Of a stretch of 64,000 bases of DNA, positions 7,200-64,000 are shown in pieces. The notes beneath the pieces were generated by a model. It searched no databases, was not told where the DNA came from, and worked only from the letters and a program-made list of their open reading frames with translations. Location of the stretch: positions 64,001-128,000 of the forward strand of contig JAVZHQ010000002.1 in NCBI GenBank assembly GCA_038998335.1, written 5' to 3'. The translations under genes were made by a program, and so were the position numbers. This stretch comes from Candidatus Aenigmatarchaeota archaeon (GTDB lineage Archaea; Aenigmatarchaeota; Aenigmatarchaeia; CG10238-14; SCSR01). Each line of letters starts with the position of its first letter. The first letter of the stretch is position 1.

Positions 7200-7223
7200 T
7201 AAATGTGCATGTAAGTATACAAG
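7200..7223. promoter_or_regulatory. Palindromic operator-like motif, copy 2 (TGCAT-N6-ATACA)
   Basis: TAAATGTGCATGTAAGTATACAAG in the divergent gap between the HTH regulator and tRNA-Ile. Confidence 0.55.
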
Positions 7224-7316
7224 GGCCTATAGCTCAGCCTGGTTAGAGCAATCGCCTTATATGGCTCGCTTTCGTGAGAAAGCGATAGGTCGAGGGTTCA
7301 AATCCCTCTAGGCCCA
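7223..7316 (+). tRNA. tRNA-Ile(UAU) with 19-nt intron at 37/38 (7262-7280)
   Basis: Cloverleaf: acceptor GGGCCTA/TAGGCCC, anticodon stem ATCGC/GCGAT, loop CT-TAT-A|A, T-arm GAGGG-TTCAAAT-CCCTC; central helix CTTA/TGAG and 3-nt bulge AA|A. Confidence 0.88.
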
Positions 7317-10906: not shown

Positions 10907-11031
10907 TAGCGGGGGCACGATTTGAACGTGCGACCTTTACCCCAGACTTAAGTCTGTCCGGGTGTCACAAGAGCAGCCTTATGAGCCATTCGCAAAACTT
11001 CGGCGAGCACTCCAGGCTGCTCTACCCCGCT
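10907..11031 (-). tRNA. Initiator tRNA-Met(CAU) with three introns (29/30: 10988-11000; 37/38 or 38/39: about 10964-10979; 43/44: 10937-10957)
   Basis: A1:U72 acceptor AGCGGGG/CCCCGCT; removing 13+16+21 nt gives a 75-nt tRNA with anticodon arm CCGGG-CTCATAA-CCCGG; BHB helices TCGC/GCGA and ACCC/GGGT. Confidence 0.9.
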
Positions 11032-41973: not shown

Positions 41974-42087
41974 CCCCGCTTAGCTCAACGGTAGAGCGAC
42001 CGGCTGTAGGCGAGCGCTTTGGCGCCTGCTAGTAGCCATCGCTCGGTTAATACCGGTAGGTTGGGAGTTCAACTCTCCCAGCGGGGA
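41974..42087 (+). tRNA. tRNA-Tyr(GUA) with 42-nt intron at 37/38 (42010-42051)
   Basis: C1:G72 acceptor CCCCGCT/AGCGGGG; ACCGG-CT-GTA-G|A-CCGGT; intron stem CGAGCG/CGCTCG. Confidence 0.9.
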
Positions 42088-42157
42088 CTATTATTTTTAA
42101 GGTACAAAAACCAAAAACTTTAAAAGTTTTTAAATTCCAAATATCATAAATATATTC

Positions 42158-42273
42158 GTTGGCGGCCAAAGCGGGGAGGAAACATCTGTTCCCATTCCGA
42201 ACACAGTAATTAAGCTCCCCAGCGATCTGGGTTGTACTTTCCGAAAGGAAGGGAACTCCAGGACGCCGCCAAC
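42158..42273 (+). rRNA. rrf: 5S rRNA
   Basis: 116 nt; terminal helix GTTGGCGGC/GCCGCCAAC; conserved CCCATTCCGAACAC and TAAGC. Confidence 0.93.
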
Positions 42274-42348
42274 AATTTAAATTGGTGTCTGTATTAAAAG
42301 AAAAATAGAGAATGATGACTTTTCCTTAGAATTCAATGAGATAAGAAT

Positions 42349-42434
42349 GCCTCGGTGGTGTAGGGGCCTAATGGATAGGCTAAGCATACGAGCCTGTCAC
42401 GCTCGTGACACGGGTTCAAATCCCGTCCGAGGCG
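42349..42434 (+). tRNA. tRNA-Asp(GUC) with 13-nt D-arm intron at about 21/22 (42371-42383)
   Basis: GCCTCGG/CCGAGGC-G; CGAGC-CTGTCAC-GCTCG; oversized D-loop folds as GGCC[TA|A]T..A GGCT[AA|G]. Confidence 0.9.
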
Positions 42435-53600: not shown

Positions 53601-53685
53601 TATTCGCTGATTTCGTCTGTTAAAGTGAAAAAGTTTAAATATATTTAAATACTCAATTTAAATTTAAGTTAGTGGGGGTGAATTG

Positions 53686-54963
53686 ATGCCTGCAAAACCA
53701 CACATAAACATAATGACTGCAGGACATGTTGATGCTGGTAAATCAACTCTTATAGGAAGATTACTATACGAAACTGGAGCCATAAGAGATGAAGAATTAA
53801 GAAAGTTAAAGGAATTGGCTACTCAACTTAAGAAAGAAACTTTCGAATATGCTTTTGTTATGGACAAGCTTAAAGAGGAAAGAGAAAGAGGTTTAACAAT
53901 AGATATAATGCATCGCCCTTTTGAAACACAAAAATGGTTTTTCACTATAATCGACTGTCCTGGTCATAGAGATTTTGTTAAAAATATGATAACTGGAGCA
54001 AGCCAAGCAGATGCTGCCATTTTTGTTATTTCAGCAAAGGAAGGAGAAGGTGTGCAAGAACAAACAAAAGAGCATGCTTGGCTCATGAAAGTTCTTGGAA
54101 TTAAACAAATTATTGTTGTTTTGAACAAAATGGATACGGTAAACTATGACGAAAAAAGGTTTAACGAAGTAAAAGAGGAAGCAATAAAGTTGCTTAAAAC
54201 TATTGGTTACAAAGTTGAAGAAATTCCTTTCATTCCAATTTCAGCTTACCATGGAGATAATGTTACTAAGAAATCTGATAAAACGCCTTGGTATAAAGGT
54301 CCTACCTTAGTTGAAGCCTTAGACACTTACATAAAAGAGCCAGAAAAACCTGTTGGAAAGCCATTAAGAATTCCAATCCAAGATGTTTACAGCATAACAG
54401 GAGTTGGTACTGTTCCAGTAGGGAGGGTTGAAACAGGAGTTTTAAAAGTTGGCGACACTCTAGTTTTTGAACCACCAGGAGTAAAAGGTGAAGTTAAATC
54501 TATAGAAATTCACCATCAACCAATTCAAGAAGCTAAACCAGGAGATAATGTTGGGTTTAATGTAAGAGGAGTGAGCAAAACCGATATAAAGAGAGGGGAT
54601 GTAGCAGGCCATCCTGACAACCCTCCAACTGTAGCAAAAGAGTTTACTGCACAAATTGTTGTTTTGCAACATCCAACAGTAATTAGTGCTGGTTATACTC
54701 CAGTTTTTCACTGTCATACTGCTTCAGTAGCTTGTACTATTACTGAAATAATTGCAAAGATTGACCCAAGAACAGGTGCAGTAATTCAGGAAAAACCTGA
54801 TTTCATAAAAACTGGAGATGCAGCAAAGATTAGAGTTGTTCCTACCAAACCAATGGTTATTGAGAAGCAATCTGACTTTCCTGAGTTGGCAAGGTTTGCT
54901 ATTCGTGACATGGGAATTACAGTAGCTGCTGGAGTTTGCTTGGATGTAGTAAAGGCCAAGTAG
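53686..54963 (+). CDS. tuf: Elongation factor 1-alpha; last codons supplied by the integrated element
   Basis: [29 protein letters not shown], 'RFAIRDMG'. Confidence 0.98.
54944..54963 (+). repeat. attL direct repeat (replacement tuf 3' end)
   Basis: ATGTAGTAAAGGCCAAGTAG, 17/20 identical to 62202-62221; encodes VVKAK-stop. Confidence 0.9.
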
Positions 54964-54980
54964 TTATTTAGTATTATTTC
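54960..54980 (+). repeat. Left 21-bp inverted repeat of the element
   Basis: GTAGTTATTTAGTATTATTTC is the exact reverse complement of 62172-62192. Confidence 0.95.
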
Positions 54981-55049
54981 CCTGGCTCTTTTTTATTATT
55001 TTATTAGGCTGAGGCTTTATAAAGCTTGTGGTTAATTCTATTAATTGAT

Positions 55050-55421
55050 ATGGTTACATCTAAAAAAATACTAGAGATTAAAATAAAAAGAGATTGGTAT
55101 GATTATGTTATGCTAATCTTGGTGGGGATTGGTACCTTTAGCGCATTATTTGGCGTGACTATACAAGTTCCAAAAATACAAGGCGCATTAGAAAATATTA
55201 GCAAATCATATAATGCAAGTTTAAGTGAAAGATTATCAATCAAAGAAACTTTTACGACATGTGTCACGCATGCAAAAACACCACACATAACAGAATGCTA
55301 TACATGCAATGAATACCCCATAGAACAAATTAATGCAATTCTGCGTGTGTGCAATATAGAAATAACAGACTCTCTTACTAATACAACAAACAAAACACAA
55401 AAACTCGAATTAATAAAATAG
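55050..55421 (+). CDS. Element-encoded membrane-anchored hypothetical protein
   Basis: One TM near the N-terminus, four Cys in the soluble part. Confidence 0.6.
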   Translation: MVTSKKILEIKIKRDWYDYVMLILVGIGTFSALFGVTIQVPKIQGALENISKSYNASLSERLSIKETFTTCVTHAKTPHITECYTCNEYPIEQINAILRVCNIEITDSLTNTTNKTQKLELIK

Positions 55422-55505
55422 AAAAAATGTTTAAATTTCCATATTTTTTATTTCTCCTTTCCTTTATTATAAAATTATTTTTTTTCAGTCTTTTGGTTGA
55501 AGAAT

Positions 55506-55739
55506 CTAATACATTGAGCTTTGTTGAGTTGCTAAATATATGAAAACAACAACTACAATAAAAACTACAACTATACAAATAAATAGAAATATATTACCCG
55601 TAGATATGAAGAAATCACCGGTTCCGGGTAAAATAGCATTCATTGTCCTACCCAAAACATTGCCAAAATAAGCCAATAAACCTAACGCTAATATTATTGA
55701 ACCCATTATTCCTAGCACCACCCATATATTTATTTCCAT
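55506..55739 (-). CDS. Element-encoded small two-TM protein
   Basis: 77 aa, two hydrophobic helices. Confidence 0.6.
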   Translation of the reverse strand: MEINIWVVLGIMGSIILALGLLAYFGNVLGRTMNAILPGTGDFFISTGNIFLFICIVVVFIVVVVFIYLATQQSSMY

Positions 55740-55793
55740 ATCTCATGAGATGAAATCAAAAATATTTATTTTTATTCTTTGTTAATTGAATTA

Positions 55794-56210
55794 TTAACAC
55801 TTACCAATAGTAGTAGTAATAGTATATCCTCTTTCAATCATCTTGCTGACTAACTCTTCTAAACTTACCCACTTCCTTTTCTTATTGCCTACCAAAAGAT
55901 AGCACACGCACTCAACGATGTCTCTTGCTACACTATTATCTCTACTACTATTACTATCTACTATTACATTTGGCCCCATTATCTCTACTACTTTATCCAG
56001 CGCAAACTGAGGATTTCTCATGTAGCTTCTAAGAAAAGGTAAGGTTAATCTTATACCGGCTTCTGTCACTACTAAAACATTATTAAGGTATAACTCGTTT
56101 ACTATTTCTTCTATTTGTTGTAAACTTATTGAAATACTCATCGAATCACCGCATTGCTTAATAATCGCATCCTTAGAACGATGCCGTGAGAGGCTCTTCT
56201 TTCGCACCAA
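55794..56210 (-). CDS. Element-encoded hypothetical protein
   Basis: 138 aa ORF (true start may be MSISIS at 56141). Confidence 0.55.
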   Translation of the reverse strand: MVRKKSLSRHRSKDAIIKQCGDSMSISISLQQIEEIVNELYLNNVLVVTEAGIRLTLPFLRSYMRNPQFALDKVVEIMGPNVIVDSNSSRDNSVARDIVECVCYLLVGNKKRKWVSLEELVSKMIERGYTITTTIGKC

Positions 56211-56407
56211 CCGTTTTTAACCCATAATGAAAGAATTTGTCTACCTATTCTCCAACAAATCTTTCTGTGACTAAACCAGAATCTTATATAGCTATAATTT
56301 ATCACTTTGTTGGGTGTTGTGTAGAAAGCGGGCAACTCCTCTAAAAATTTCTCAAACAAATATTTGGCATATTTGTTCTCCATATGATTATTAACCATTA
56401 GAATCAC
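56138..56407 (-). CDS. Element-encoded small basic hypothetical protein
   Basis: 89 aa ORF in the same leftward run. Confidence 0.5.
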   Translation of the reverse strand: MILMVNNHMENKYAKYLFEKFLEELPAFYTTPNKVINYSYIRFWFSHRKICWRIGRQILSLWVKNGWCERRASHGIVLRMRLLSNAVIR

Positions 56408-56482
56408 CCCGATTTCCAGATGAAGGTGATTCCTTCCACCATTTTCTTAGGACCTTAACATATTCTGGCAGGTTGTCTTCAT

Positions 56483-56617
56483 TCATTTTCTCTCACCTTT
56501 TCGCAATTCTTTCTCAAGAAGAACTCTTATAAAACCTGAAAAAGTTGAACCTCGTTTGTAGGCTTTCTTTTTTGCTTTTTCCTTCAAACTTTTCGGTATT
56601 GAAATTGTAGCCCTCAT
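56483..56617 (-). CDS. Ribbon-helix-helix (CopG-like) protein, 44 aa; absent from ORF track
   Basis: Manual translation MRATISIPKSLKEKAKKKAYKRGSTFSGFIRVLLEKELRKGERK fits the RHH pattern. Confidence 0.8.
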   Translation of the reverse strand: MRATISIPKSLKEKAKKKAYKRGSTFSGFIRVLLEKELRKGERK

Positions 56618-56722
56618 GGCGCAAATTTAAGTAATCTAATGTTAAATTCGGGTAGGTATCAAAAAATGATACTACTTATCTCAACAATTATTTAAAAATA
56701 GTTACGCCGAAATTATTTTTAG

Positions 56723-57088
56723 ATGTTTAAAAAGTTTAAAATAAAAATATTAGAGTTGCTCGTAAAAAATTCTGTAAACTCTTTTGAAAAAGCAATTAGA
56801 ATGGATGTTTATGAAGAAAGGTTAATGAAAGAGATTGGAATTGAAAATAAAACTTACTTCTATAAGATATTGTACGAAATGGAGAGAGGAAAGGCTATAA
56901 CAAGAGTCGCTCACGGCCCAACGAACCGTGTTTATGTTTATATGACACCGAGTCAATACGAGCGGGTTAAAAAACTACTTCCTATTCTGAATGATTTAGA
57001 ACTTGTTTTAGGTCTTATTTTAGTTTCGAATAAAGACATTAATAGGATTGTGGATACACTATTGCAAAAAATTTACGAAAAGTCTTGA
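56723..57088 (+). CDS. Winged-helix (MarR-like) DNA-binding protein
   Basis: 'KTYFYKILYEMERGKAITRV...NRVYVYMT'; divergent from the RHH gene. Confidence 0.65.
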   Translation: MFKKFKIKILELLVKNSVNSFEKAIRMDVYEERLMKEIGIENKTYFYKILYEMERGKAITRVAHGPTNRVYVYMTPSQYERVKKLLPILNDLELVLGLILVSNKDINRIVDTLLQKIYEKS

Positions 57089-57283
57089 AATTCTGCAAAA
57101 GTGCTTTATTTTAAGTAGATATAATTTTTAAAGTAAGAATAAGAAATTTTTGAATCTTTTAACAAATCTTTAAGAGTAAATCTTTCTAAAATACCAAGTT
57201 TATCCAAATCTTTGACTTTTTCGAGAAATTCTTTAGATTTTGAGATAAATAGTATATAAAAATTTCATACCATAAATTAAATT

Positions 57284-57511
57284 ATGAGAGGCGAGCTCAT
57301 GGAATTAAGTTGTCCATTCTGTGACAGGGGGAAAATAGAAGTCTGGTATATTCCAAGCTATATTAAAATTAGAAGAATATCTGGCTCATTTGGTAAGGGT
57401 CACGCCTTTTCTAAAAGTGCTGATATTTGGATAGTAAAATCAGGTTGTCCTGTTTGTGGTAAATCACCAAATGAAGTAGAAAGAGAATTAAAACGAAAGA
57501 GAATAATTTAG
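57284..57511 (+). CDS. Small zinc-finger protein
   Basis: CPFC and CPVCG; likely start MELSC at 57299. Confidence 0.75.
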   Translation: MRGELMELSCPFCDRGKIEVWYIPSYIKIRRISGSFGKGHAFSKSADIWIVKSGCPVCGKSPNEVERELKRKRII

Positions 57512-57521
57512 GTTATAAATT

Positions 57522-58187
57522 ATGTCAGAAATTGACAAACAATCTAAAATAATTTTAAAAAATGGAGAAATTTTATGTTCTTTACCAATTACTGCTCATA
57601 CAAGTAAAATCAGAGTAAAGAGAAATGGAGAACCTTTAGCCACGCGTCAAAAAAATCTTCTTGATAGTGACTTGATAGAATGGCAAATTTCTTACTATAA
57701 ACCAAATACAAACAAAGAACTTTTTGAAATTGGGTTGATGTTAAAAATTGCTTATGAAAATGGAATTATTTCTAGAGAAGAATTAAAAAATATTAAGGAA
57801 TATGTCAAGAAAGTTGATAAAACTTTCTTTGAGAGTTATTCTTTTAGAGTTGAGAAGTTAGAAGAAAATTTTTATGATTTTATGGTGATGTTGAGAGAAT
57901 TTCCCTTTCTTCGTAAATTTTTTAGCGATGGTTGCTCTTTAGAAATAGAAATAAAACACAAGCAAAAAGCTGTCGGGTTTCAACCTATGCTTTATATTTT
58001 TATTCCTTTAAAAAATGTAGTTTCAGAAAATGAGAATAATTTAATCGGAAGAAAAGCAAGGCCAAAAGAAAGAGTGATTTGGAAACCTAATAAAATACAT
58101 ATAATTGAAACAATTAAGGCATTTGCTATAGCTTCTAAGACTCATCTGAATGATATCAAAGAAATTCTTAACAGGATTGAATCCTAA
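57522..58187 (+). CDS. R.PabI-family (HALFPIPE) restriction enzyme / restriction DNA glycosylase
   Basis: Motifs 'LPIT...KIRVKR', 'IEWQISY', 'KHKQKAVGFQPMLYIFIP' match my recollection of the PabI family; convergent with methyltransferases. Confidence 0.75.
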   Translation: MSEIDKQSKIILKNGEILCSLPITAHTSKIRVKRNGEPLATRQKNLLDSDLIEWQISYYKPNTNKELFEIGLMLKIAYENGIISREELKNIKEYVKKVDKTFFESYSFRVEKLEENFYDFMVMLREFPFLRKFFSDGCSLEIEIKHKQKAVGFQPMLYIFIPLKNVVSENENNLIGRKARPKERVIWKPNKIHIIETIKAFAIASKTHLNDIKEILNRIES

Positions 58188-59310
58188 ACTCTAAAATATC
58201 ACTTTTTTTAATTGATTTGCTACCAACCCTAAAAGTTAGGTTTTTGAAATGTTCTTGATTTTCATTTAGTATTCTGCATATTTTTTCCTTAAGTTCTTTA
58301 TCTTTGTCATATTTTTCTTTAAACTTAAACACATAAAACATGTCATTCAAAACATCTTTCTTTATGTTTATTAATCCAGCCCTACCGACACTTGTATTAC
58401 CAACTCTAACGATAGCTAGATAATAATCTGAGACATTTTCACCTACAGGGATTTCAATTTTTTCTGTTATGTTTGAACCAGAAACATTATTATTCGTGTA
58501 GGATTTTTTATAATAAACTTTTTCATTTGATAAAAACTCATATAATGGAATTCCCTTAAGGCATACATTTTTCTTGTATAAGAATGATTTTGGTATAAGC
58601 TCTTCAGTTAATAGATTGGACTTATCTAATATTTCCTCGACCTTCCTACCCTCTTCATAAATAAGAATTATTTTATCTTTAAACTTTTCAACATTAGTAA
58701 ATATGGCAAAACAGCATGGTATGGGCTCATCGACCCATTTTTTATTGTTTTGATACACTATAATGGTAGAAAATCTATTTAGAATTTCTCTTTTAACTTC
58801 CAAATTTTTTCCTTTTATAAAAAAGGAAATTGGTAGAACAAAACCAATAGTCGAATTTTCATCTTTTAAATGTTTAATAGACTTAAGAATAAAGACATTC
58901 TCTATTTGTATTTTCTCTTTTTTAACCAATTTTTTTGTTAGGTATTCTTTGGGGTGAATAGGACTATTAAAATATTTTTTTGGAAAGTAGTAGCTTTCCT
59001 TTATGTTATATTTCGTGAAAGGCGGGTTACCTATAATTAGGTCAAATTTTTTATCTAAAGGGTAAAGGAAAAAGTCACAAGGTTGCTTTGTGAATTGTGG
59101 GTCAATCTCACAACCTTCTATGTTATTAAATCCTTTCTTTTTAAGAATTTTTATAAAATTACCTGTTCCAAAGGAGGGCTCTAAAATCTGAATTTTTTTA
59201 TCATATTTTTTAAATTTCAGAATTAAATCTATAACTTTTTTTACTATTTCCTTTCTTGTAAAATATTGACCTAAAATGAATTTTTTATTTATTTTCAAAT
59301 TTATCACCAT
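58168..59310 (-). CDS. N6-adenine DNA methyltransferase, gamma class
   Basis: 'GQYFT', motif I 'LEPSFGTG' before motif IV 'GNPPF'. Confidence 0.9.
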   Translation of the reverse strand: MVINLKINKKFILGQYFTRKEIVKKVIDLILKFKKYDKKIQILEPSFGTGNFIKILKKKGFNNIEGCEIDPQFTKQPCDFFLYPLDKKFDLIIGNPPFTKYNIKESYYFPKKYFNSPIHPKEYLTKKLVKKEKIQIENVFILKSIKHLKDENSTIGFVLPISFFIKGKNLEVKREILNRFSTIIVYQNNKKWVDEPIPCCFAIFTNVEKFKDKIILIYEEGRKVEEILDKSNLLTEELIPKSFLYKKNVCLKGIPLYEFLSNEKVYYKKSYTNNNVSGSNITEKIEIPVGENVSDYYLAIVRVGNTSVGRAGLINIKKDVLNDMFYVFKFKEKYDKDKELKEKICRILNENQEHFKNLTFRVGSKSIKKSDILEFRIQSC

Positions 59311-59951
59311 ATATTAGCCAATCTTTTATTGGCAAGTTTAACATACTTTGGATTAATTTCAAATCCTATAAAATTTCGATTGAGTTGTTTACAGGCGATA
59401 GCTGTGCTTCCACTTCCAATAAAAGGGTCTAAGATTAAATCATTTTCTTTGGTGAACATTATCAGTATATCTCGAATAAAATGCTTGGGTTTAGGTGTAG
59501 GGTGGTCTATATAGCCTTCATCAGGTTCGATCATCTTTGTTCCAGCTATATGCTCAAATAAATCTTTATTAGGTTGAATAATTTTCGGGTTTCCTTTCTT
59601 GAAAATGAAGCAAGACATATATTTTGTAATTCCTATTGGAGATTTAACATTTGCTTTTGGAGAATAAAAAATTATTTGCCAAAAGTAGACAAATGGGTTG
59701 TTTATAAATAGTTTTGGTAGAAATTTTGTGCTAAAAAATGTAATGAAGAAACTATTATTTTTTAAAACCCTATAACATTCGGGTAAAATTTTATAGAATG
59801 TGGTTAAATCCTCGTCGTTACGAATTCCCTCTTTTTTCAAGCCGTAAGGTGGGTCTGTGATAATTGCATCTATGGTTTCATCCGGTATCTCTTTAATTAA
59901 TTTTAAAGCATCGCCCAATACTATTTTGTTAATAAATTTGTCGATTGTCAT
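59304..59951 (-). CDS. N4-cytosine/N6-adenine DNA methyltransferase, beta class
   Basis: 'TDPPY', 'HPTPKP', 'LDPFIGSGST'. Confidence 0.92.
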   Translation of the reverse strand: MTIDKFINKIVLGDALKLIKEIPDETIDAIITDPPYGLKKEGIRNDEDLTTFYKILPECYRVLKNNSFFITFFSTKFLPKLFINNPFVYFWQIIFYSPKANVKSPIGITKYMSCFIFKKGNPKIIQPNKDLFEHIAGTKMIEPDEGYIDHPTPKPKHFIRDILIMFTKENDLILDPFIGSGSTAIACKQLNRNFIGFEINPKYVKLANKRLANIW

Positions 59952-60104
59952 TATTCACACCATTTAAACTATGTTATTATCTTTTGATATCCATTTTTTT
60001 CTCAGTTAGCATTATAGTAATATATAACACTACCTATATTTAAAATTTAATAACCCTAACACTAAGGTTATAGATTTATATACTACTAAACACTTAAAGA
60101 ATAT

Positions 60105-60239
60105 ATGGCCAAACGAATTTCTACAAGTATAAAAATAGACCCGGAAATCCTTAAACAAGCAAAACATTATGCAATTGATGAGGGTATTACTTTTTCTGAA
60201 TTGGTAGAAAGAGCATTAAAAAATGAAATAAAAAAATAA
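60105..60239 (+). CDS. Ribbon-helix-helix protein, 44 aa; absent from ORF track
   Basis: Manual translation MAKRISTSIKIDPEILKQAKHYAIDEGITFSELVERALKNEIKK; divergent from the methyltransferases. Confidence 0.8.
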   Translation: MAKRISTSIKIDPEILKQAKHYAIDEGITFSELVERALKNEIKK

Positions 60240-60393
60240 ATTATCCGAAAAAATAGTTCGATTCTTATTTGAATTTTAATATTATCCAAACATTCAAAGA
60301 TGTTCCAAAAGATTTGAGTAGAGAAGCTAAAATCGTTATTGGAACTGCATGGGTTTTATGGAATGAAATACCATATGAGTTTACGATTTGATT

Positions 60394-60969
60394 TTAATTT
60401 TTTTCTAAACTCCTTCTTTTCATCTCTTCTTCCTTCTTTTTCATATAAGCTTCATAAATTATGTCAAATTTTTCCAAAATAGCTGATTGATGGGGTTTTT
60501 CGATTTTTTGAATAATTGTAGGAGATTGGTACATTTCTCCTAAAACTTTCATTAAATGAATTTTTACAAGTAAAAGCCTGTCTATATTCTTATCCAACCT
60601 TCCTCCATCCTTTACTTCATACCACTTAGCCACTTCAAGTCTTCTATCTATATCTTCAAGCTCATTCCACATTAAATTTATTAATTGCTCCACATTTCTT
60701 GTGTTATATTTTTTGATTATAATTTTTTTGAAAGCACAAATCGCTCCTGTCTGATAAAAGCTACACCTATCTCTTATATAGCAACTATCACAATCAATTA
60801 TTTTAAATCTTCTCGCTCTCATCCCATGCTTAAATGCTGCCAAATTTCCTTTTACAAACCTTCCTGTTTTAGGGTCTCTGTCAATCTGCTTTACAACTGT
60901 TTCTCTGCTATCCTTAATTTTATTTTCACCGTTTGTGTTTTCTTGACCAACGGTGACCATAAACATCAC
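60394..60969 (-). CDS. Terminase small subunit-like protein with Cys cluster
   Basis: 'RDPKTGRFVKGNLAAFKHG' resembles the GN..A.KHG motif of viral TerS; CxxC-x4-C-x8-C; helical C-terminus. Confidence 0.55.
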   Translation of the reverse strand: MMFMVTVGQENTNGENKIKDSRETVVKQIDRDPKTGRFVKGNLAAFKHGMRARRFKIIDCDSCYIRDRCSFYQTGAICAFKKIIIKKYNTRNVEQLINLMWNELEDIDRRLEVAKWYEVKDGGRLDKNIDRLLLVKIHLMKVLGEMYQSPTIIQKIEKPHQSAILEKFDIIYEAYMKKKEEEMKRRSLEKN

Positions 60970-62132
60970 TCCTCAAACAAATATTCCAAACCTCTCTCCT
61001 TGACCATTTGCCTAAAAACCTCTTTTACACTTTCGTCCCTATTTGCCAACACCAAAAGAAAATCTTTAACAAAATCATCAAAATCTTTCCTCACCTTTTC
61101 AGCTTCCAAAATCATTTTAATATCCAAAGGAGAGCCACACCTTTTACAAAAACTAAAAGATGATGGGTTGACTTCACCACATTTAAAACATTTCTTAACT
61201 TCCTTGTTCATAACTTCTAAGAGCTTTTCATCTATCTCCTTTCCTGATAAATGATAATAAACAGAAGCCATCTTGCTATCTTTAGTCCAACCGAATATTT
61301 CCTTCATCACAGCTTCTGGTAAATGTTTTGCTAAATGAGTAGCTCTTGCGTGTCTGAAAGCATGAGGATTCACTCTTTTTTTAATTCCAACTTTCTCAGC
61401 CAACTTTTTTAAAATAGATTCAACTTGCACATAGGTTATTAATCCTCGTTTGTTTTTGCCCAAAGATATCCACACATAAGCTTCTGGGTCGTTTCTTAAA
61501 GGATGTACATCTAACCAATTTTCTAATTCCTTAACATACTCTATTATTCTCACTCTTCTCATTCCAGTTTTTCCGTCAACTATTAACACACAGCCATGCT
61601 CATCAAAAATTATATTTTTAATTTTTAGGGAAAGCAACTCTCCTACTCTGCAACCCGATTCATAAAGTACGAGAACTAGGGCTTTATCTCTAAGATTGTT
61701 TGCTACTTTAGCCATCCTTTCTATTTCTTCTTTAGTCAAAATCTCTTCTGGTAAGAACTTGTTTTTCAACTTATGATTTAACTTAATCCATTCTACTTCT
61801 TCAGGATAAGTATTTGAGTTTCTCAACCATTTATAAAACCTCTTTAGCTCGCATTTAATCGCAGTTTTAGATTTCTCACTTCCGTACCTATTCTCTACTT
61901 CACTAACAACAGCTATGATATCCTCTTTTGTAGCTTCTGTAAATGGTTTGTTGAGAATTTTTGCTATCGTGGACAAAGCCCAAAGAACATTCCTCAAAGT
62001 AGCTTTTCTGAAGCCGTTTGCATTAAGAAGATTGAAGAACTTGAAGATAAGCTGTTTGTTCTCTTCGCATATAGAAGAGTTTTTAATTCTCTCAATATCT
62101 TTTTCCAAGCTTCTGGCAGTATTTAAGCTCAT
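60966..62132 (-). CDS. Tyrosine recombinase/integrase with C-terminal double zinc ribbon
   Basis: Catalytic set R (SGCRVGE), K (GKTG), HxxR (HAFRH), W (FGW), Y (SVYYH); CxxC...CxxC tail. Confidence 0.95.
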   Translation of the reverse strand: MSLNTARSLEKDIERIKNSSICEENKQLIFKFFNLLNANGFRKATLRNVLWALSTIAKILNKPFTEATKEDIIAVVSEVENRYGSEKSKTAIKCELKRFYKWLRNSNTYPEEVEWIKLNHKLKNKFLPEEILTKEEIERMAKVANNLRDKALVLVLYESGCRVGELLSLKIKNIIFDEHGCVLIVDGKTGMRRVRIIEYVKELENWLDVHPLRNDPEAYVWISLGKNKRGLITYVQVESILKKLAEKVGIKKRVNPHAFRHARATHLAKHLPEAVMKEIFGWTKDSKMASVYYHLSGKEIDEKLLEVMNKEVKKCFKCGEVNPSSFSFCKRCGSPLDIKMILEAEKVRKDFDDFVKDFLLVLANRDESVKEVFRQMVKERGLEYLFEE

Positions 62133-62171
62133 AATTTTGCCTACCTTCTTTTTAGCCTAAATATGCCAGAA

Positions 62172-62192
62172 GAAATAATACTAAATAACTAC
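62172..62192 (-). repeat. Right 21-bp inverted repeat of the element
   Basis: GAAATAATACTAAATAACTAC, exact reverse complement of 54960-54980. Confidence 0.95.
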
Positions 62193-62201
62193 CATAGCTT
62201 T

Positions 62202-62221
62202 ATGTAGTTAAGGCAAAGTAA
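62202..62221 (+). repeat. attR direct repeat (displaced original tuf 3' end)
   Basis: ATGTAGTTAAGGCAAAGTAA reads GTA GTT AAG GCA AAG TAA = VVKAK-stop. Confidence 0.9.
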
Positions 62222-62240
62222 TTCTTTTATTTTTTCTTTG
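62222..62240 (+). terminator. T-rich putative terminator of the pre-insertion tuf gene
   Basis: TTCTTTTATTTTTTCTTTG directly after the displaced stop codon. Confidence 0.5.
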
Positions 62241-62284
62241 TTGTTTATAATAAAAATTAGTAAAATTAAGATTTTCTCAAAAAA

Positions 62285-62461
62285 TTATTTCTGCTTGCTT
62301 GCAAAATAAGCTACCCCAATTCCTAGAAGTGCAAAAGCAAAAGCTATTACACCCAAAACCCAAGCTTGCTCTTTTGCGAATATCAAGAAGAAAAAAACTA
62401 TTGGTATAAATATACCTGCAAGAGCAGGAGCAATTCCAGTTATATCATGTTCTTTTTTCAT
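62285..62461 (-). CDS. Small two-TM protein, 58 aa; absent from ORF track
   Basis: Manual translation MKKEHDITGIAPALAGIFIPIVFFFLIFAKEQAWVLGVIAFAFALLGIGVAYFASKQK; outside the element. Confidence 0.7.
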   Translation of the reverse strand: MKKEHDITGIAPALAGIFIPIVFFFLIFAKEQAWVLGVIAFAFALLGIGVAYFASKQK

Positions 62462-62629
62462 ACTTAATGCTTGTTTTACAAGCTTATAAGCATTGTTTAA
62501 CTATCAAAAGTTCAAAACAAACTTGTAAGAATTAATCAAGATTCCCTAAAATATTTAAATAAGCTTTACAAATCAAAATTCTAGAAAAGTTTAAATAATT
62601 TAACTCAATAACACAAGAGAAGTGGTATT

Positions 62630-63763
62630 ATGAAAATTGATTTAGAAAACATAGCAAAAGAAGTTTTTAAGAAAAAACCTTTGGTAATAAAAAAAATAGA
62701 CAAAAATCTAATTAAAGTTTTCTATAAAGGTAAAAGTCCAAGAAACACACCAAAACCAATAATTCTTCCAAAAATAATAAATTTGGATGAAGAAATTATT
62801 GAGAATGTTGGAATGTACATTGGTGATGGAACTCTCTCACCAACCAGAAAACATCAAATAGAATTTACTACTATAGATGTAGACATGGCAAAAAAATTCC
62901 TCGATTTTTTAACGAAAAGATGGTGTGTTAAAATACAAAATATAACCTTTATTTTAAAGTACAACAAAGGAAACAAAAAAACAATAAAAGAAAAATGGAA
63001 AAAATATCTAAATGTCCCAAGTGAAAAACTTCTAGTTAAAAAAGAAACTAAATATAATGCTCGAGATTCTCTGACAATTATTGTTAACAGCTTGATTTTT
63101 ACTCAAGTATTCAAAAAATTTATTAAAAAATCACTACCATTAATTAAACTAAATTCTAAATTAATAAAAGCATTTCTAAGAGGAGAATTTGCAGCTGATG
63201 GAAAATTTATAGTAGAAAAAGATACCAATACCTACTATATCTCTGAAATAACCTTCTGTTATAACTATCCTAAAGAGTTATGGTTACGGAATTACTTAGT
63301 CGAATGCCTAACGAAAGAAGGAATAACAAAAATCAATGAAAACCGAAAAGGCTTTATTAGAATTACCGGCTGGAATAATTATTTTAAATTATGGAAGATG
63401 GGAATTTTTAACTGTTGTAAGAGAAAAAAAGAAAAATTTCTATCAACGATTAAACAATCAAAAATTCATCTTATGGTAGATGTTGAAACAATTAAACAAA
63501 TTATAAATTCTTCGAGTCTGACCAAAAAGGCCATAGCAAATAAAGTTGGTATAAATAGATCAAATCTTTTTAGAGTTCTAAATGGTAAACAACTTATGAC
63601 AATTGAACAATTTAATGCACTTACTCAATTAATTGATAATCATTTAAATACTTATCAAAATCAAATAAGTAAAATTAGGATTGGTAAACTTACTTATTTG
63701 CCATTTTCCCGAGAATTTATAAATTTTGTTGCAAAAGAAAAATTGATAAAAGGTGATAGGTAA
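62630..63763 (+). CDS. Free-standing double-motif LAGLIDADG endonuclease with C-terminal HTH
   Basis: Motifs 'ENVGMYIGDG' and 'AFLRGEFAADG'; XRE-like HTH 'LTKKAIANKVGINRSNLFRVLNGK'. Confidence 0.85.
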   Translation: MKIDLENIAKEVFKKKPLVIKKIDKNLIKVFYKGKSPRNTPKPIILPKIINLDEEIIENVGMYIGDGTLSPTRKHQIEFTTIDVDMAKKFLDFLTKRWCVKIQNITFILKYNKGNKKTIKEKWKKYLNVPSEKLLVKKETKYNARDSLTIIVNSLIFTQVFKKFIKKSLPLIKLNSKLIKAFLRGEFAADGKFIVEKDTNTYYISEITFCYNYPKELWLRNYLVECLTKEGITKINENRKGFIRITGWNNYFKLWKMGIFNCCKRKKEKFLSTIKQSKIHLMVDVETIKQIINSSSLTKKAIANKVGINRSNLFRVLNGKQLMTIEQFNALTQLIDNHLNTYQNQISKIRIGKLTYLPFSREFINFVAKEKLIKGDR

Positions 63764-64000
63764 ATGCAAATAGCAAGAATAAAACTTTTAGGAAGAGACC
63801 CAAAAGAATTGGATAGCATTTGCAATGAAATAAAGGAAATAGCAAAAAAATTAGGTGTAGATTATAGAGGACCGATTCCCTTACCAACAAAAAAATTGAA
63901 AGTAGTAACTATGAAAACTCCTTGTGGCGACGGGACACTAAACTAGACATCTAGTTTAGCCCGAAAGGCCATGGAAATGCTACTTTTGATAGATGGGAGA
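63764..64000 (+). CDS. rpsJ: 30S ribosomal protein uS10, interrupted by a putative intron; runs off the window end
   Basis: 'MQIARIKL...[10 protein letters not shown]...TPCGDGT'; after removing 63937-63965 the frame continues [11 protein letters not shown]. Confidence 0.93.
63937..63965 (+). other. Putative 29-nt BHB/BHL-type mRNA intron in rpsJ
   Basis: CGGG[AC|A]CTAAACTAG-ACAT-CTAGTTTAG-CCCG[AA|A]; contains an in-frame TAG; excision restores the frame. Confidence 0.85.

Follow-up and report, generated by a model that had tools for sequence, protein, structure and literature searches.

A candidate relaxed bulge-helix-bulge intron in the ribosomal protein uS10 gene of a hot-spring Aenigmatarchaeota archaeon

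How does an archaeon produce ribosomal protein uS10 when the reading frame of its rpsJ gene closes on a stop codon and the rest of the protein is encoded in another frame? The question arises in a 64,000-nt stretch of DNA, referred to here as the window, which corresponds to positions 64001-128000 of contig C2 in the genome of an Aenigmatarchaeota (DPANN) archaeon that we label G000 (1.0 Mb, 33% G+C, 90% complete). DNA of this strain is present in hot-spring metagenomes, and a sister genome, G002, holds a contig nearly identical to that of the window. In the window, rpsJ begins with the ATG at 63764 and its frame is closed by the TAG at 63944-63946, while the second half of uS10 lies in the +2 frame and runs past the end of the window to a stop at contig C2 128111-128113. 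Our comparative sequence analysis suggests, with a probability of roughly 0.88, that the interruption is an intron of the bulge-helix-bulge (BHB) family, of the relaxed type termed HBh', within the sole uS10 gene of this hot-spring archaeon, and that the rpsJ mRNA is very probably spliced.

The two proposed exons (Table 1) match positions 1-52 (E = 1.3e-14) and 41-98 (E = 2.1e-11) of the Pfam Ribosomal_S10 model. These half-matches constitute the only uS10 locus in the G000 genome at its 90% completeness, and a search of that genome with the same model found no second uS10 match. Excising 63937-63965 joins 173 and 145 nt into 106 codons, which encode a uS10 of 106 residues. Intact relatives (n = 30) encode the loop at the junction as GDG(T/C)GHGN(A/T)(T/S)(F/Y/W), with one GDS exception and with GHG in 30/30, in the context KTPCGDG(T/C)GHGN. 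The loop of the spliced product fits all 30 and is identical in this region to that of G001, an intron-less genome of the same genus. A first-pass annotation of the window had proposed a tRNA-type intron at this site; its predicted 29-nt excision regains the conserved loop, and every coordinate that it gave for the frame, the TAG, the helices, the bulge, the hairpin, the AAA and the outer helix was verified in the sequence. The borders of the intron can equally be drawn one base rightward (63938-63966).

Interrupted rpsJ genes also occur among the relatives of this archaeon. Of the 70 genomes searched in its family, f1, 67 carry uS10, and the gene is split in nine (G000, G002, G004, G019, G044, G054, G061, G062 and G064) and unsplit in 58. 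None of the 46 uS10-bearing genomes from other families of the order has a split gene. Across the phylum, where 332 of the 371 genomes searched have a uS10 match, the split form appears only in the same nine genomes; among the 332 are partial, weak-scoring matches in G241 and G331, which lay outside the contig-end check. Two genomes, G124 and G134, have two full uS10 copies each. G080 was dropped from the count of split alleles, as its match lies at a contig end and the sequence reads intronless, and the partial matches in G120, G138, G144, G175 and G259 were likewise rejected as contig ends. A pattern scan of metagenome contigs returned nine stretches, one of them real (contig L167 from a Joint Genome Institute (JGI) metagenome, identical to G044) and eight attributable to chance. 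The scan of genome contigs was too loose, with at least 120 stretches, almost all from GC-rich bacteria.

As a separate observation, several contigs end within a few bases of the rpsJ intron sites, namely the end of C3 in G080, the start of C79 in G175, the start of C29 in G259 and the end of C6 in G120; the contig-end loci L165, L193, L194 and L195 come from families f1, f21, f33 and f8. Such ends could reflect presence/absence polymorphism that breaks assemblies.

The inserts are of two types. Type I, the kind found in the window, comprises five distinct sequences of 28-32 nt from four genera, and type II comprises three alleles from a fifth genus, g6 (Table 1). The type II site lies 7 nt upstream of the type I site, after the first base of the Asp codon, and its fold is the canonical hBHBh', in which 4 bp separate two 3-nt bulges, with 100% of cells paired. 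In each of the eight distinct alleles, the frame of exon 2 is shifted by exactly the insert length modulo 3, and the predicted cuts yield a 106-residue uS10 with the GHGN loop. Five of the eight are out of frame, and the three in-frame inserts (G019, G044 and G061) contain stop codons.

In shape, the insert resembles archaeal tRNA introns. The minimum-free-energy fold of a 71-nt stretch is exactly the structure that the first-pass annotation had drawn (-25.5 kcal/mol, z = -5.49), and none of 200 shuffles is as stable. The outer helix, with four Watson-Crick and two G-U pairs, has 100% of its cells paired across the five distinct type I alleles. Similarly, central helix H is 100% paired, with a compensatory change from G-C to C-G at one pair in G044 and G-U changes at two pairs. 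The 5' bulge reads ACA in four of the five alleles and ACT in G054, as well as in a strain variant from sequencing run X2, and the 3' loop is A(A/T)AG in all five. Within the inner hairpin h', two pairs show compensatory changes and 91% of cells are paired, in an alignment where one bulged base of G019 is misplaced. The 3' cut site occupies a 2x4 internal loop, in which GA faces AAAG, rather than a simple 3-nt bulge, which refines the earlier description. Compared with the canonical hBHBh' motif, the window intron has a canonical 5' bulge and 4-bp helix and deviates at the 3' site, and all five distinct type I sequences fold as relaxed HBh'. We therefore class the window intron as a relaxed, non-canonical HBh', because its 3' cut sits in the 2x4 internal loop.

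The alignment of rpsJ among relatives, which the annotation had recommended, reveals both presence/absence of the insert and compensatory changes. In type I, 95.8% of cells are paired, compared with 27-48% in slid controls, and out of 500 shuffles a single one did as well as the real alignment in paired fraction or covariation score; these are modest statistics drawn from five related sequences. Three pairs have changed on both sides, one of them within the 4-bp helix, and each type I sequence individually folds into the same architecture. Additionally, intron-bearing alleles show no variation at the synonymous sites contributing to the helices, whereas intact alleles vary there. Comparison of intron-bearing alleles with one another shows purifying selection on both exons: for G000 and G004, the proportion of synonymous differences (pS) is 0.47 in exon 1 and 0.48 in exon 2, and the proportion of nonsynonymous differences (pN) is 0.015 and 0.017, respectively.

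A tree of 38 rpsJ coding sequences, from which the columns around the inserts were removed and in which the duplicates G002 and L167 and some family members were left out, groups intron-bearing alleles with intron-less alleles of their own genus. For instance, G000 is sister to G001 with support of 99/87. At least seven changes of intron state are needed for the eight intron-bearing rows. The type I inserts are probably homologous, because their first and last bases are common across genera. Turnover of this kind is easier to reconcile with a selfish or neutral element than with a conserved regulator. A conserved regulatory role is disfavoured because the distribution is patchy and relatives of the same genus lack the intron; the earlier suggestion that the intron couples ribosome biogenesis to the activity of EndA and RtcB was speculation, and the patchy distribution speaks against it.

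The G000 genome encodes the machinery that splicing would require. EndA, the splicing endonuclease, is a single gene (C1:649574-650095, 188 residues, with N and C domains), and no second homolog was found in this genome even at E <= 10. It is closest to the alpha4 enzyme of M. jannaschii and carries a 6-residue insert between the regions of the catalytic Tyr and His, which aligns without gaps with the N. equitans alpha subunit and with ARMAN-2 and is missing in M. jannaschii and M. kandleri. Passages of Kaneta 2018 describe a C-terminal insert, L3, and alpha4 enzymes bearing it from DPANN lineages rich in disrupted tRNA genes (PMC5829648). By its sequence, the 6-residue insert would fit an L3-type loop. 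The ligase gene rtcB lies intact at approximately 120.6-122.1 kb of C1; it had been flagged as an interrupted gene on account of two internal TAA codons, a candidacy that was rejected once the gene proved intact.

Many tRNAs of G000 carry introns. The initiator tRNA (window 10907-11031, minus strand) is apparently broken by three small inserts, located in the 5' strand of the anticodon stem, after the anticodon loop and after the 3' strand of the stem. ARAGORN miscalls this gene as a tRNA-Lys with one intron, and the Rfam tRNA model misses it at the gathering score. Its 21-nt insert at 10937-10957 (minus strand), assigned to position 43/44 by manual parsing, consists of a 4-bp helix, a 3-nt bulge, a hairpin, 4 nt and AAA, which bears out the statement of the first-pass annotation that the 43/44 intron shares the layout of the uS10 insert. 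Because the initiator tRNA carries an insert of the same design, G000 must already process the HBh' layout, and its own non-canonical tRNA introns would imply an EndA able to cut relaxed motifs.

Other tRNA loci of this genome display further inserts. The tRNA at window 7223-7316, interrupted by roughly 19-20 nt, is reported by ARAGORN as "Stop (tta)" or Ser depending on the mode, and its anticodon loop reads by eye as UAU (Ile). A 5S rRNA gene (42158-42274) is located between two intron-bearing tRNA genes at window 41974-42434, one with a 45-nt insert and the other tRNA-Asp-like with an insert in the D-arm region. Outside the window, at C1 653838-654731, ARAGORN proposes a tRNA-Leu(CAG) with an 800-nt insert, which could be a gene-carrying intron or a false call.

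We also scanned the G000 genome for other HBh' or BHB inserts whose removal would mend a reading frame, with the 5' bulge set to exactly 3 nt and at least 40 open codons required on either side of the insert, settings under which cases can be missed. The 46,084 motifs were reduced to 960 by a loose filter, to 154 by codon scoring and to nine by requiring at least two G-C pairs in the central helix. Among these nine, only the uS10 intron is both compact and strong; the remaining eight (67-106 nt, with weak helices) resemble gene boundaries and were rejected as introns.

Taken together, the restored loop, the eight alleles brought into frame, the co-varying helices and the presence of both EndA and RtcB sustain the reading of the insert as a tRNA-type intron in an mRNA. 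In the pre-mRNA, exon and intron bases would pair into the 4-bp helix, flanked on its 5' side by the 3-nt bulge and the 9-bp hairpin and on its 3' side by the internal loop and the outer helix. EndA would cleave at two points, between the second and third bases of the bulge and just past the second A of the AAAG loop, and RtcB would ligate the exons, with the 29-nt intron probably circularised. The joined mRNA would give the normal 106-residue uS10; an unspliced message would stop at the TAG after 60 codons. We infer cleavage, ligation and the exact cut register from these features, and the register assignment relies on the rule that the endonuclease cuts after the second base of the bulge.

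One rival is programmed translational bypassing, as in phage T4 gene 60, in which the ribosome would take off at AAC, land on an AAT 35 nt downstream and produce GDGTLN-ATF. The TAG does follow immediately on the possible take-off codon and lies inside a stable hairpin, both codons specify Asn, and G004 permits the same hop. However, the bypass product would lack the GHG present in 30/30 intact relatives. Matched codons, moreover, are possible in G000 and G004 and are not conserved in G019 (CGA before TGA) or G044 (GAA before TAG), which have no matching in-frame landing codon, and the type II alleles differ again. What is conserved are the helices and bulges of the BHB motif rather than take-off and landing codons, and we consider bypassing very unlikely. 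It is also very improbable that rpsJ is a decaying pseudogene broken by an insertion, with uS10 supplied elsewhere. A gene caller does see a premature stop and a frameshift, and in a genome that is 90% complete a second copy might be unassembled; yet the intact second rpsJ that the annotation had named as evidence against its own proposal was not found in G000, whose genome has no other uS10 match. Strong purifying selection acts on both exons between intron-bearing alleles, and all eight distinct alleles, from five genera, combine an exactly restorable frame with a structured insert, which argues against decay.

Tolerance of an unspliced insert, either as a two-piece uS10 or through stop read-through in the in-frame alleles, is highly improbable. 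Although the break falls in a surface loop of uS10 and three alleles (G019, G044 and G061) are in frame, exon 2 has no in-frame start codon near its beginning, its first Met being that of WEMR; read-through would lengthen an invariant loop by 10-11 foreign residues, and most alleles (5/8) are out of frame to begin with. To an artefact of assembly or sequencing (a chimera or a duplicated stretch, for example) we assign a next to negligible probability. The source is a metagenome-assembled genome, and contigs of several relatives break at or beside the site, but contigs in runs X2 and X3, from two other studies, cross the insert without an indel. The X2 strain differs from the window by three substitutions (the first intron base and two exon-2 bases). 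Inserts are present in nine genomes and in the JGI metagenome contig L167, and the variants diverge in sequence yet retain the structure. A self-splicing intron or an intein was ruled out by the size of the insert and its stop codons.

Several points weigh against interpreting the insert as a spliced BHB-family intron. Its 3' site departs from the canonical 3-nt bulge, and the comparison is equally compatible with the register AC|A...AA|A and with a one-base shift, which gives the same protein product. The helices of type II are invariant across their three sequences, and type II therefore adds no co-variation. Contigs from X12 and X14, libraries labelled as metatranscriptomic, do not cover the intron and are uninformative either way. 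Alpha4-type EndA enzymes are classically held to need canonical BHB motifs. The sole EndA gene of G000 is alpha4-like, and the L3 argument is an association drawn from one paper, in the passages cited above (PMC5829648).

Directly upstream, and ending where rpsJ starts, is a gene for a LAGLIDADG homing-endonuclease-like protein with a C-terminal helix-turn-helix (HTH). All five members of its family share the motifs GxYxGDG and FLRGxFAA(D/E)G and are matched by PF14528 (best E = 5.6e-6); the window copy, at 21.9 bits, falls just short of the 22.5 cutoff. Its structural model has a pLDDT (predicted local distance difference test) of 82, and the top Foldseek hits are I-DmoI, PI-SceI, E-DreI and I-AniI, with a template modelling (TM) score to the target of about 0.5. 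Searching PDB sequences with the family profile returned HTH proteins only. With two motifs ending in acidic residues and a modelled LAGLIDADG fold, the upstream open reading frame (ORF) appears to encode a putative endonuclease.

This gene is the last in an 8.8-kb island (window 54960-63763) between tuf (approximately 53660-54957) and rpsJ, whose other features are listed in Table 1. In many relatives tuf and rpsJ are adjacent, and in many the gap holds differing inserts. G002 shares the LAGLIDADG-like gene, the contig of G004 begins in an alignable, stop-ridden remnant of it, and in G064, whose intron is of type II, the corresponding place is taken by a homolog with 44% identity. All genomes in which the gene directly adjoins rpsJ carry an intron, and they belong to two genera; no homolog was found on the rpsJ contig of intron-less genomes.

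As a tentative and rather improbable extension, the mini-intron might be the immunity half of a mobile pair with the LAGLIDADG endonuclease, an arrangement known as collaborative homing. The endonuclease would cut intron-less rpsJ in the stretch that codes for the invariant loop and cannot mutate freely; a BHB intron placed there would split the target while leaving the protein unchanged, and repair would co-copy the endonuclease gene and the intron, which lie 173 nt apart. Such a pair would explain why two introns occur 7 nt apart in one family, why the endonuclease abuts rpsJ only in the intron-bearing G000, G002, G004 (as a remnant) and G064, why introns are scattered among close relatives, and why orphan introns persist after loss of the endonuclease gene. 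If true, it would show concretely how tRNA-type introns can get into the protein genes of archaea.

The homing link is opposed by the five of nine intron-bearing genomes (G019, G044, G054, G061 and G062) that have no LAGLIDADG-like gene nearby, and by the finding of no rpsJ repeat in the 9 kb upstream. Close homologs (32-37% identity) in G020 (L178), G055 (L179), G052 (L180) and G067 (L181) adjoin topoisomerase VI A and B genes, which were named by reading the sequences; in some loci the locus end truncates top6B. The complete top6 ORFs beside these homologs are unbroken, which also counts against the link and indicates that introns are no general companion of this endonuclease family. A supposed duplicated stub of exon 1 beside the endonuclease gene was rejected, the N-terminus of the endonuclease being unlike uS10 exon 1 (E = 1.9). 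Independently of rpsJ, the topoisomerase VI locus stands out as a second docking site of this endonuclease family.

Table 1. Features of the interrupted rpsJ gene, allele lengths and neighbouring genes (window positions unless stated otherwise)
Feature	Position	Strand	Remarks
rpsJ (uS10) exon 1	63764..63936	+	173 nt; last two bases are the first two of a Thr codon
Intron	63937..63965	+	29 nt; contains in-frame TAG at 63944-46
rpsJ exon 2	63966..64000, on to contig C2 128110	+	145 nt
Outer helix, 5' strand (exonic)	63923..63928	+	pairs with 63968-63973
Central helix H, 5' strand CGGG (exonic)	63931..63934	+	4 bp with 63960-63963
Bulge ACA	63935..63937	+	3 nt; predicted 5' cut after second base
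Inner hairpin h'	63938..63959	+	9 bp, arms 63938-46 / 63951-59; 4-nt loop ACAT
Central helix H, 3' strand CCCG (intronic)	63960..63963	+	pairs with 63931-63934
3' loop AAAG	63964..63967	+	opposite GA 63929-30; predicted 3' cut after second A
Type I alleles			G000 29 nt (= G002); G004 28 nt; G019 30 nt; G044 30 nt (= contig L167); G054 32 nt
Type II alleles (fifth genus, g6)			G061 33 nt; G062 32 nt; G064 35 nt
LAGLIDADG homing-endonuclease-like gene	62630..63763	+	377 aa; C-terminal HTH; stop abuts rpsJ start
R.Pab1-like restriction endonuclease	57522-58187		tuf-rpsJ island
DNA methylases (two)	58168-59310 and 59304-59951 (minus strand)		tuf-rpsJ island
Tyrosine integrase	60966-62132	-	tuf-rpsJ island

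If the rpsJ mRNA is spliced as proposed, an essential and universally conserved ribosomal protein of a DPANN archaeon would depend on the tRNA-splicing machinery, and an alpha4-like EndA would cut a relaxed motif in an mRNA, which is classically unexpected. There are practical implications as well. In such genomes, gene callers would list uS10 as absent or pseudogenic, and uS10 is a marker for completeness estimates and phylogenomics; the contig breaks at the site hint that intron polymorphism fragments assemblies too.

Among known systems, the closest in motif are the introns of archaeal tRNAs, for which non-canonical forms with relaxed HBh' and hBH motifs were reportedly described by Marck and Grosjean in 2003. 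Relaxed tRNA introns, as presented in parts of PMC5829648, share with the uS10 intron a 4-bp helix, a 3-nt bulge, an inner helix and a second cut within a loop. Unlike them, the uS10 intron resides in an mRNA, where no tRNA body aids recognition and the helix strands encode conserved residues. In eukaryotes, the splicing of HAC1/XBP1 mRNA by IRE1 and RtcB is independent of the spliceosome and changes the frame upon excision. The uS10 case would resemble it in mRNA splicing by protein enzymes, RtcB-type ligation and the change of frame; HAC1/XBP1 differs in its endonuclease and RNA motif and in being a regulated stress switch, whereas uS10 shows no sign of regulation. For the proposed mobile pair, the parallel is collaborative homing in T-even phages, where Bonocora and Shub (2009) are said to have shown cleavage of the intron-less allele by a free-standing endonuclease that accompanies an endonuclease-less group I intron. 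Both loci place a free-standing endonuclease gene beside a small intron in a highly conserved coding stretch; the phage intron is self-splicing and the cleavage has been shown, whereas the rpsJ endonuclease and its target are putative.

The nearest precedent in a protein-coding gene is the cbf5 intron of Desulfurococcales and Sulfolobales (Watanabe 2002). As described in sections of Yokobori 2009 (PMC2738675), that intron measures 16-44 bp, and splicing was unconfirmed for other archaeal protein genes. Like the uS10 intron (28-35 nt), it is a short endonuclease-type intron within a coding sequence; both have no room for a protein of their own, come and go among relatives and are miscalled as frameshifts by annotation. 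The cbf5 gene encodes a pseudouridine synthase in Crenarchaeota with a heterotetrameric EndA, and its splicing has been shown experimentally; uS10 is a ribosomal protein in a DPANN lineage with a single alpha4-like EndA bearing an L3-type insert, has two insertion sites 7 nt apart in one family, and its splicing is deduced by comparing sequences. A second precedent appears in parts of Schwarz 2020 (PMC7714728), which report a BHB intron in the 5' untranslated region (5'-UTR) of HVO_1309 from Haloferax volcanii and name cbf5 as the only other mRNA example. HVO_1309 provides, and uS10 would provide, the splicing endonuclease with an mRNA substrate outside tRNA and rRNA; the HVO_1309 intron, confirmed both in vivo and in vitro, is part of an untranslated leader, whereas the uS10 intron breaks the reading frame and its case is a comparative one. 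The consulted sections of a 2026 review of non-canonical splicing (PMC13149111) make no mention of archaeal mRNA introns, and our full-text search of the literature found no report of a BHB intron in a ribosomal protein gene. In the literature searched, including parts of PMC7714728, the BHB introns of protein-coding genes in print are those of cbf5, plus the single 5'-UTR case. Set against these systems, the uS10 intron is a known kind of element in a new gene, a new lineage and a new enzyme context.

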